Positions 52,459 to 53,915 of a stretch of DNA of 64,000 bases are shown one piece after another. The notes under the pieces were generated by a model that saw only the letters and a list, made by a program, of their open reading frames with translations, searched no databases and had not been told where the DNA came from. The stretch is taken from NCBI RefSeq assembly GCF_046105845.1, contig NZ_CP151004.1; one strand, given 5' to 3'. The position numbers were made by a program, and so were the translations under genes. Position 1 is the first letter of the stretch; the number at the start of each line of letters is the position of its first letter. The DNA is from Escherichia coli. GTDB lineage: Bacteria > Pseudomonadota > Gammaproteobacteria > Enterobacterales > Enterobacteriaceae.

Positions 52459-52469
52459 TACACTTCTTT

Positions 52470-52585
52470 TTCGGCCTATAAATCATCAACCGCATCCGGC
52501 ACTTTTGTCGGATGCGATGCTGGCGCATCTTATCCGTTCTACAAGCCATGCACCGTTGGCCGGATAAGCGCAGCGCATCCGGCAG
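52470..52585. repeat. REP-like palindromic elements downstream of cpdB
   Basis: ccgcatccggcacttttgtcggatgcg and ggccggataagcgcagcgcatccggcag. Confidence 0.55.
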
Positions 52586-52966
52586 TTATGCCGCACGTTC
52601 ATCCCGCACCGCTAACACCTCGGGCAAATTCAGCTCAATCCAGTCCGCCAGTGCAGCAACCTTTTCGCTCACCTGCTCGCCCAGCGGCGTGAGGCTATAT
52701 TCCACATGCGGCGGCACCACCGGATACGCGATACGGTTAAGAAAACCATCCTGCTCTAGCGCCTGTAACGACTGCGCAAGCATCTTTTCACTTACCCCGC
52801 CGATTTTGCGCCGCAGGTCGCTAAAGCGATGAGTACCTTCGCGTAGCGCCACCAGAATCAACACCCCCCAACGGCTGGTGACGTGTTTCAAAACCTCGCG
52901 CGACGGACACTGTTCAGCGAAGAGATTTCCCTCTTTCAGTTGTTGCGACAGGCTAACCTGACTCAT
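52586..52966 (-). CDS. ytfH: HxlR-type transcriptional regulator YtfH
   Basis: 126-aa form from ATG 52964-52966 (MSQVSLSQQLKEGNLFAEQCPSREVLKHVTSRWG...). Confidence 0.85.
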   Translation of the reverse strand: MSQVSLSQQLKEGNLFAEQCPSREVLKHVTSRWGVLILVALREGTHRFSDLRRKIGGVSEKMLAQSLQALEQDGFLNRIAYPVVPPHVEYSLTPLGEQVSEKVAALADWIELNLPEVLAVRDERAA

Positions 52967-52989
52967 CTCATACTTACCTTTTTGTACGT

Positions 52990-53006
52990 ACTTACTAAAA
53001 GTAAGT
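52990..53006. promoter_or_regulatory. palindromic candidate operator in the ytfH-qorB divergent promoter
   Basis: ACTTAC-taaaa-GTAAGT perfect 6-bp inverted repeat between the two starts. Confidence 0.45.
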
Positions 53007-53054
53007 TTAGGTGTTAGCGTATTTAAACACAAGACAAAACGATGGAGACTTCCT

Positions 53055-53915
53055 ATGATCGCAATTACTGGTGCCACTGGCCAACTTGGTCACTATGTTA
53101 TTGAATCCTTGATGAAAACGGTTCCTGCCAGCCAAATAGTGGCTATCGTTCGTAATCCGGCAAAAGCCCAGGCCCTGGCAGCACAAGGCATTACCGTGCG
53201 TCAGGCTGACTACGGCGATGAAGCCGCACTGACATCTGCACTACAGGGAGTGGAAAAACTACTGCTGATCTCTTCCAGCGAAGTGGGTCAACGTGCCCCG
53301 CAGCATCGTAATGTTATTAATGCCGCAAAGGCGGCTGGCGTGAAATTTATCGCTTATACCAGCCTGCTACATGCAGATACCTCCCCGCTCGGCCTCGCCG
53401 ATGAGCACATCGAGACGGAGAAAATGCTGGCTGATTCTGGCATCGTTTACACCCTGCTGCGCAACGGCTGGTACAGCGAAAACTACCTCGCCAGCGCCCC
53501 GGCAGCACTGGAACACGGCGTATTTATCGGTGCCGCGGGCGATGGCAAAATTGCCTCGGCAACGCGGGCAGATTATGCGGCAGCTGCGGCGCTCGTGATT
53601 AGCGAAGCCGGTCACGAAGGCAAGGTTTACGAGCTGGCGGGCGATAGTGCCTGGACGCTGACACAGTTAGTGGCAGAGCTGACCAAACAGAGCGGAAAAT
53701 CGGTTACCTATCAAAATCTGAGCGAAACCGATTTCGCTGCGGCGCTGAAAAGCGTTGGCCTGCCTGACGGACTGGCGGATATGCTGGCGGATTCTGACGT
53801 TGGCGCATCGAAAGGCGGTCTGTTTGATGACAGCAAAACGCTGAGCAAATTGATTGGCCGCCCAACGACAACGTTAGCCGAAAGCGTAAGCCATCTTTTT
53901 AATGTTAATAACTAG
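53055..53915 (+). CDS. qorB: NAD(P)H:quinone oxidoreductase QorB (YtfG)
   Basis: 286-aa NmrA-like ORF with MIAITGATGQLG Rossmann motif. Confidence 0.92.
   Translation: MIAITGATGQLGHYVIESLMKTVPASQIVAIVRNPAKAQALAAQGITVRQADYGDEAALTSALQGVEKLLLISSSEVGQRAPQHRNVINAAKAAGVKFIAYTSLLHADTSPLGLADEHIETEKMLADSGIVYTLLRNGWYSENYLASAPAALEHGVFIGAAGDGKIASATRADYAAAAALVISEAGHEGKVYELAGDSAWTLTQLVAELTKQSGKSVTYQNLSETDFAAALKSVGLPDGLADMLADSDVGASKGGLFDDSKTLSKLIGRPTTTLAESVSHLFNVNN

Follow-up and report, generated by a model that had tools for sequence, protein, structure and literature searches.

A conserved two-site element between ytfH and qorB of Escherichia coli is a likely operator for the HxlR-type regulator YtfH

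Introduction

The divergent genes ytfH and qorB of Escherichia coli are separated by a short spacer that contains a perfect palindrome. This raises the question of whether the palindrome is a site through which YtfH, one of those E. coli transcription factors for which neither a binding site nor a signal is yet defined, controls its neighbor. An initial annotation of the DNA had put it forward as a candidate YtfH operator. Here we analyze the palindrome in a 64,000-nucleotide stretch of E. coli DNA (the window) and in the related loci of other genomes.

Results

The ytfH-qorB locus

The window includes the cpdB-ytfH-qorB-ytfF region of E. coli, and the E. coli annotation agrees with the gene assignments. 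The features of the two divergent genes are:

52586 to 52966, minus strand: ytfH, encoding a 126-aa HxlR/DUF24-type winged-helix regulator with a single cysteine (Cys20)
53055 to 53915, plus strand: qorB (ytfG), encoding an NmrA-family NAD(P)H:quinone oxidoreductase (PF05368, E 6.5e-24), the presumed target
53044 to 53047, plus strand: Shine-Dalgarno sequence GGAG of qorB, kept in 68-76 of 79 aligned spacers

The gene starts at 52966 and 53055 define an 88-bp spacer (52967-53054), as initially annotated. Compared with E. coli K-12, the spacer has only two differing positions, both outside the conserved element described below.

The ytfH-qorB segment (52586-53915) has a top identity of just 98.1% to any of 5,426 complete E. 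coli genomes. Compared with the E. coli representative (L001), the QorB protein is ~93% identical and YtfH 98%, and there seem to be diverged qorB alleles within Escherichia. Between cpdB and ytfH, whose 3' ends converge, positions 52460-52585 are filled by GC-rich imperfect palindromes of the REP/BIME type, recognized by eye (e.g., GCCGGATAAGCGCAGCGCATCCGGCA).

The palindrome by itself

The palindrome is one feature of the spacer:

52990 to 53006, no strand: site B, a 7-3-7 palindrome ACTTACT-AAA-AGTAAGT, with the consensus ACTTAC-N5-GTWAGY and with TACT-N7-AGTA at 52989-53003

The segment reads ACTTACTAAAAGTAAGT. It is a perfect palindrome, as first described, with arms of 7 nt and a 3-nt spacer rather than arms of 6 nt. 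Its centre, at 52998, lies at a distance of 32 bp from the start codon of ytfH and 57 bp from that of qorB. Thus, the earlier placement of the palindrome within the spacer holds, and its description as midway does so only roughly. The hexamer centres are 11 bp apart and the invariant positions are dyad-symmetric, as in the short dyads of DUF24-type regulators.

Taken alone, the palindrome is no more than chance expectation. There are 80 perfect inverted repeats in the window with arms of at least 7 nt and spacers of 0-8 nt, compared with ~40 in Markov simulations, and at least one such repeat occurs in ~11% of simulated 88-bp sequences of the same composition (P about 0.11). Furthermore, perfect symmetry is not the conserved feature of the site. 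The perfect palindrome is a minority state, found in 20 of 81 distinct sequences, and the right arm is mostly AGTTAGT.

Two adjacent dyads in a conserved block

A single scan of ~100,000 species genomes with YtfH recovered 80 loci, from Enterobacteriaceae plus Proteus and Morganella. The qorB gene is divergent from ytfH in 78 of the 80, and the spacers are 84-105 bp long. Alignment of 79 Enterobacterales spacers revealed a conserved block that contains the palindrome and a second dyad:

52972 to 52989, no strand: site A, an imperfect dyad ACTTAC-CTTTTT-GTACGT with the skeleton AC..AC-N6-GT..GT, directly abutting site B
52970 to 53006, no strand: conserved 37-bp block (sites A and B), the proposed two-dimer operator region, with 25 of 37 columns invariant

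Thirty of the 37 columns are conserved at 95% or more, and the palindrome of the initial annotation is one of two adjacent dyads in this element. As a neutral control we used 38 fourfold-degenerate qorB sites in the same genomes; their mean major-allele frequency is 0.62 and none is invariant. Outside the block, the ytfH N-terminal codons and the rest of the spacer vary across the 79 spacers.

The left arm of site B, ACTTAC, is invariant in all 81 distinct sequences, as are all eight skeleton positions of site A. The sequence TACTTAC is repeated directly, 18 bp apart, as the left half-sites of A and B. In each site, the dyad-symmetric invariant positions of the 81 sequences read A, C, A, C in the left half and G, T, (A/G), G/T in the right half. 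Between the half-sites, the spacers vary (AAA, TTT, TTA, TAA and ATA in site B; in distant homologues TTTTT, AAAAA, TTTAT, TTCAG and AGAAT for the N5 core of site A). The inner two positions of the half-sites also vary, and they do so uncompensated: 53003 is A or T, the pair 52993:53003 is T:T in 56 of 81 sequences and the pair 52990:53006 is A:C in 19 of 81. Freely varying spacers without compensatory changes fit a dyad bound by protein and do not fit an RNA hairpin. The two dyads differ in spacing (N6 in A, N5 in B). Among the remotest homologues, site B has a degenerate right arm (GTCAGC, GATAGC) and both left arms are invariant. Thus, recognition may be less symmetric than that of a textbook palindrome.

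We considered two larger symmetries and found neither to be supported. One large palindrome centred on GTACGTAC is broken by an A/G polymorphism at 52986 that disrupts GTACGTAC in 25 of 81 sequences, and the outer H1:H4 pairing lacks covariation across the 81 sequences.

Of 5426 complete E. coli genomes, 5406 have a single copy of a 43-bp block, which is identical in 3903 records and has a one-base difference in ~1500. No annotated feature was found on this block in the E. coli genomes. No second copy of the operator was found in the 64-kb window, and a search of 529 kb of loci gave no further match to the single-site patterns. Five places on plasmids match part of the 43-bp block. One (H20, NZ_CP157326.2, 171045-171073; 93% over 29 nt) is on a 360-kb plasmid in an E. 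coli J53 transconjugant. These matches suggest that large plasmids carry a ytfH-qorB-like module or a fragment of one.

Some database entries extend YtfH across the spacer to 138-212 aa, and the window contains a 163-aa GTG ORF. We rejected a coding reading of the spacer because its length differences between species are not multiples of 3 and because the block is invariant at all three phases. In addition, reading of the sequences shows an in-frame TAA 33 nt upstream where the ATG abuts the block.

On the minus strand, positions 52963-52971 (ATGAGATGA) form a two-codon mini-ORF (ATG AGA TGA) with a stop codon that overlaps the annotated ytfH ATG (52966-52964); the K-12 counterpart of this region is ATGAAATGA. 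Elsewhere in the Enterobacteriaceae, ytfH itself mostly starts at the ATG adjoining the conserved block. The Escherichia start seems to have shifted by 5 nt, with the old ATG retained as a start-stop uORF.

The element in distant homologues and rearranged loci

Using representatives of 50%-identity clusters, we obtained contigs of eight YtfH homologues with 52-69% identity. In seven of the eight, the gene is divergent from an NmrA-type reductase gene or the contig is too short to show the neighbor. All seven, with YtfH homologues of 54-69% identity, carry the element in the same register. It is found in DNA of 52-67% GC beside the distant homologues and also in Proteus, at 33% GC. In a contig of 66% GC it reads ACTTACC-AAAAA-GTGCGT-ACTTACC-AAA-AGTAAGC, and in one of 67% GC, the neighboring genes of which look alphaproteobacterial, it reads ACTTAC-AAGAAT-GTGGGT-ACTTAC-GTTTT-GATAGC.

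The full skeleton, AC..AC-N6-GT..GT-AC..AC-N5-G..AG, is present exactly once in 88 of 94 fetched loci, always just upstream of the ytfH homologue. The six loci that lack it are L053, L042, L088/L089 and L093/L094. In L053 (2440-2500) qorB is deleted and the block is retained with one change in the skeleton. In L042 (2440-2500, Lelliottia nimipressuralis CCUG 25894) qorB is also deleted, site A is decayed and site B survives. This is the only sequence with a left arm other than ACTTAC; the arm is ACTAAC and mirrors the right arm GTTAGT, so that ACTAACT-AAA-AGTTAGT is a perfect palindrome of an alternative half-site allele. L088/L089 and L093/L094 come from one organism, whose regulator has 52% identity and is not adjacent to the NmrA gene. 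On the L093 contig (metagenomic, 44% GC) the YtfH homologue is ~2.3 kb from the NmrA-type gene and not divergent from it. Upstream of the NmrA-type gene, at 3343-3367, is a site-A-like sequence (GTACGCAC-CAAAA-GGTAAGT) followed by an ATG and a 17-codon ORF, which looks like a relic of site A and of the old regulator start.

In another distant locus (L085, CP093323.1) a second HxlR-family gene begins ~1.5 kb downstream of the YtfH homologue (3426 onward) and adjoins genes of the short-chain dehydrogenase and YCII types. Paralogous redox regulator/reductase pairs may be clustered here.

YtfH and its effect on qorB

The assignment of YtfH to the HxlR type, made earlier from the sequence, is borne out by a match to the HxlR domain PF01638 (E 2.6e-32; 110.9 bits compared with a cut-off of 20.8). 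Relatives in the PDB are 1yyv (E 3e-70), which is the solved structure of the Salmonella YtfH orthologue, as well as HxlR, HypR/YybR and YodB. The single cysteine of YtfH is in a Cys20-Pro-Ser sequence and is invariant in 88 orthologues and homologues. It aligns with the sensing Cys-Pro of YodB and with a Cys of HxlR, and alignment offsets place it at Cys14 of HypR. The recognition helix is co-conserved among the homologues examined. In some databases the Citrobacter orthologues of YtfH are labelled 'QorR'.

We found no study of YtfH binding in the literature searched, and a preprint of December 2025 describes YtfH as lacking prior binding data (bioRxiv 10.64898/2025.12.20.695731). In that work, CRISPRi of ytfH raised qorB by log2 4.6 (~24-fold), and qorB was the sole differentially expressed gene (bioRxiv 10.64898/2025.12.20.695731, supplementary note 6); the rise was seen in just ~4% of cells (bioRxiv 10.64898/2025.12.20.695731). 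The dependence of qorB on ytfH, which had been suggested as a check of the operator idea, is thus in the published record (bioRxiv 10.64898/2025.12.20.695731), and the direction of the effect indicates repression. A caveat for the operator reading is that qorB could be perturbed directly by dCas9 sitting close to a divergent promoter.

Promoter architecture

Predicted and conserved promoter features around site B are:

53012 to 53020, plus strand: putative extended -10 of the qorB promoter, TG-t-TAGCGT, from a conserved TGnTAnnnT 8 bp downstream of site B
52992 to 52997, plus strand: putative weak -35 of the qorB promoter (TTACTA), assigned from its spacing of 17 bp to the downstream -10 and falling within the left arm of site B; its columns are invariant
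53026 to 53028, plus strand: conserved AAC, in 77-79 of 79 spacers and 74-77 of 81 distinct sequences
53016 to 53021, minus strand: possible -10 of ytfH (TACGCT) sharing the qorB -10, suggested by sequence symmetry; A53016 and T53020 are invariant

Within the -10 feature, T53012, G53013, T53015, A53016 and T53020 are invariant in 79 spacers. The distance of 8 bp between site B and TAnnnT is the same in 79 of 81 distinct sequences, and TG is at -15/-14 in 75 of 81. The putative -10 is retained in the distant loci (L081-L085), where its forms are TATGAT, TAGTAT, TATGCT, TATTCT and TATAGT. We predict from these elements that qorB transcription starts near 53027, 7 nt after the -10, which would place site B at about -37 to -21 and site A at about -55 to -38 of qorB. 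More tentatively, ytfH transcription may start near 53009, with site B at about +3 to +20. A bidirectional promoter is the weaker part of this model because the minus-strand -12 T is present in only about 36 of 81 sequences. In L042, a fresh TATTAT/ATAATA lies beside site B, consistent with ytfH having its promoter there.

A SELEX peak of the sigma-70 RNA polymerase holoenzyme was reported in the qorB/ytfH spacer (PMC3946193). The qorB promoter listed in that study (TCGACA-15-TACATT) is absent from the whole 6-kb K-12 region, and we used the peak position alone. The supplements of Cappable-seq and SMRT-Cappable-seq contain no entries for the spacer region. A simple promoter scan did not call the predicted qorB promoter. 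Its sole hit, AAGACA-17-TATGAT (53031-53059), was set aside because it overlaps the qorB ATG and is not conserved.

The nearly symmetric -10 sequence fits the bidirectional sigma-70 promoters described by Warman et al.: its plus-strand form, TAGCGT, overlaps a minus-strand TACGCT, and positions 2 and 6 of the two hexamers pair. Overlapping -10 elements with divergent start sites ~18 bp apart are the commonest bidirectional arrangement (bioRxiv 10.1101/2020.01.31.928960). It differs in that the minus-strand -12 T is present here in fewer than half of the sequences, and both start sites here are predicted.

Discussion

Proposed mechanism

The proposal that the palindrome is a YtfH operator is supported by conservation, by linkage to ytfH, by a match to the YodB box (see below) and by the CRISPRi result. 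We extend it as follows. The palindrome is probably the promoter-proximal half of a two-site YtfH-dimer operator (52972-53006) through which YtfH would repress both qorB and ytfH and respond via Cys20. The sequence of the element, its conservation, the dyad skeleton, the linkage to ytfH and the family features of YtfH are direct observations on which this proposal builds. Direct binding by YtfH, the promoter and start positions, occupancy by two dimers, autoregulation and the chemistry at Cys20 are inferred.

Reduced, unmodified YtfH would bind each dyad via its winged-helix domains in two successive major grooves. Half-site centres 11-12 bp apart would suit contact by a YtfH dimer. Site B would cover the -35 and spacer of the extended -10 qorB promoter, and site A the region from -55 to -38. 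YtfH positioned over the qorB -35 and spacer would exclude RNA polymerase, and we propose that qorB is repressed in this way. The same complex would lie just downstream of, or over, the ytfH transcription start and could bring about negative autoregulation. By analogy with YodB, QsrR and QorR, quinones, other thiol-reactive electrophiles or oxidants may modify Cys20, by S-alkylation or through a Cys20-Cys20' disulfide. Such modification would release YtfH from the DNA and induce the quinone reductase QorB.

Several points weigh against this mechanism. Part of the conservation may reflect other functions, given that the left arm of site B lies over the putative -35 and, in Enterobacteriaceae, the left arm of site A lies over the ytfH Shine-Dalgarno sequence and start. 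The unequal spacings (N6 and N5) and the decayed right arms of site B indicate that simple palindromic recognition may be an incomplete description. Also, some members of the HxlR family (HypR, HxlR) are activators.

Alternative explanations

The main rival to a YtfH operator is that the block is conserved only for core expression signals (the qorB -35 or a UP-like element, the ytfH leader, and its Shine-Dalgarno sequence and start), with no dedicated regulator. The other candidates, namely a different protein, an RNA structure and chance, are less likely. The overlap of the site B left arm with the putative -35 is consistent with conservation for expression, as is the ytfH ATG abutting ACTTACC in most Enterobacteriaceae, where AAAAAGG is a possible Shine-Dalgarno sequence. 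Furthermore, RNA polymerase holoenzyme alone binds the spacer in SELEX (PMC3946193). However, a promoter with an extended -10 normally tolerates variation in its -35, but here there is no departure from ACTTAC in 81 of 81 sequences, and the conserved positions form two dyads with free spacers. ACTTAC also persists at a separation of 2-11 nt or more from the ytfH start and despite replacement of the A/T run that would serve as Shine-Dalgarno sequence (L081, L084, L090), and the AT-rich block persists in genomes of 66-67% GC. Given that knock-down of ytfH de-represses qorB, a repressor site must be somewhere in the spacer. Thus, we consider it unlikely that expression signals are all that the block contains.

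Slightly less probable again is that the block serves as operator for a different transcription factor, for instance some other redox or electrophile regulator. The sequence does not by itself identify the binding protein, and YtfH as the binder is a prediction. It is favored over another factor by the co-occurrence of the element with ytfH homologues across very different genomes and neighborhoods, by the resemblance of the element to operators of YtfH's own family together with the co-conserved recognition helix, and by the specific response of qorB to ytfH knock-down.

The palindrome could instead act as an RNA hairpin in the ytfH leader, with a role in stability, attenuation or masking of the Shine-Dalgarno sequence. 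A ytfH start near 53009 would give a leader with ACUUACU-UUU-AGUAAGU, and the minimum-free-energy fold pairs ACUUACUUUU with AAAAAGGUAAGU, which contains the Shine-Dalgarno sequence. Against this, the fold energy is ordinary (z = -0.54; 51 of 200 shuffles fold as well), and comparison with Rfam gave no hit with an E value of 1 or less. Compensatory changes are absent across the 81 sequences, as seen in the T:T central pair (56 of 81) and the A:C outer pair (19 of 81), and the long-range H1:H4 pairing fails likewise. In L081 the pairing between the A-run and the T-run is lost. We rejected the hairpin and Shine-Dalgarno masking on the basis of the z-score, the lack of covariation and the lack of an Rfam hit, and regard a role of this kind as very improbable.

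That the palindrome is a functionless chance feature of an AT-rich spacer is scarcely credible, despite the ~11% of simulated spacers with an inverted repeat of 7-nt arms and the 80 such repeats in the window, and it is conservation alone, not palindromicity, that leads us to reject it: the block is near-invariant in 79 spacers and in distant homologues when neutral sites are saturated, and it is identical or one base off in 5406 of 5426 E. coli genomes.

Implications

The YtfH operator mechanism is as expected from the protein family and would not surprise a specialist. What the analysis contributes is a well-supported and precise candidate site, a second site beside it, a promoter model and unusually deep conservation. 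The candidate operator corresponds to K-12 positions 4434073-4434107, with core half-sites ACTWAC, and the likely sensing residue is Cys20. Thus, the hint from single-cell CRISPRi that ytfH represses qorB becomes directly testable. If the mechanism is true, a quinone/electrophile-responsive module joins the E. coli network beside NemR, MarR and SoxR. The deep conservation also yields a ready-made position weight matrix with which this switch could be annotated across many Proteobacteria.

A broader possibility, which we consider less likely than not, is that the 37-bp element is a composite of a two-dimer operator and a shared bidirectional -10, and that it represents a widespread Gram-negative quinone/electrophile switch built on the single-Cys YtfH and QorB. 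The persistence of left half-sites beyond that of right ones could reflect non-canonical, asymmetric or head-to-tail recognition by a pair of winged-helix dimers.

Comparison with related regulators

For YtfH, with its one Cys, the best model of the mechanism is QsrR of Staphylococcus aureus, a quinone-sensing repressor of the YodB family. Ji et al. in 2013 reportedly found that repression by QsrR is released by S-quinonisation of a single N-terminal Cys, and that its short dyad is bound in two successive major grooves. The QsrR operator differs in sequence from the ytfH-qorB element, and we found no QsrR motif in PMC7845598.

HypR (YybR) of Bacillus subtilis, a member of the same family, has as its operator a 7-2-7 inverted repeat, GTATCAAAATTGATAC, located at its target and in the leader of its own gene, and it activates hypO from an upstream site at -53 to -95 (PMC3351151). 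Like the YtfH candidate, this is a short AT-rich inverted repeat with 7-nt arms that is also downstream of the regulator's own promoter, and Cys14 of HypR corresponds in position to Cys20 of YtfH. The two operator sequences are unrelated, however, and HypR activates, whereas the YtfH candidate site overlaps the core promoter and ytfH knock-down raises qorB.

YodB of B. subtilis, with an operator at azoR1, has the preferred site TACT-N7-AGTA (PMC8063818). An exact match, TACT-TACTAAA-AGTA, is present at 52989-53003 and is the only one in 64 kb (0.09 expected; 9 of 100 shuffles have one). Among the 81 distinct sequences the exact box is found in 23, and TACT-N7-AGTW in 77. The two proteins belong to a common Pfam family, their N-terminal Cys-Pro sequences align, and the YodB helix ISQKMLAERL and the YtfH helix VSEKMLAQSL have the motif S-x-KMLA in common. 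The target of YodB is a quinone-detoxifying reductase that is repressed, as qorB appears to be by YtfH given the CRISPRi result. YodB and YtfH are nevertheless distant relatives (E 9e-10). The YodB box ends in AGTA where most YtfH sites have AGTT, and the YtfH element has a second adjacent dyad and is within a divergent promoter. The disulfide route of YodB needs two cysteines and is not available in that form to YtfH, which has one.

The gene arrangement is similar to that of QorR, a DUF24 protein of Corynebacterium glutamicum. In 2009, Ehira et al. reportedly found qorR to be divergent from qor2, with QorR repressing both genes and depending on one essential N-terminal Cys. Here too a regulator is divergent from a quinone oxidoreductase gene, as for ytfH and qorB, although both the phylum and the oxidoreductase family may differ. 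The element is most likely the operator of an HxlR/DUF24 repressor, itself uncharacterised, that acts on a divergent quinone reductase gene, comparable to YodB-azoR1 and QorR-qor2.
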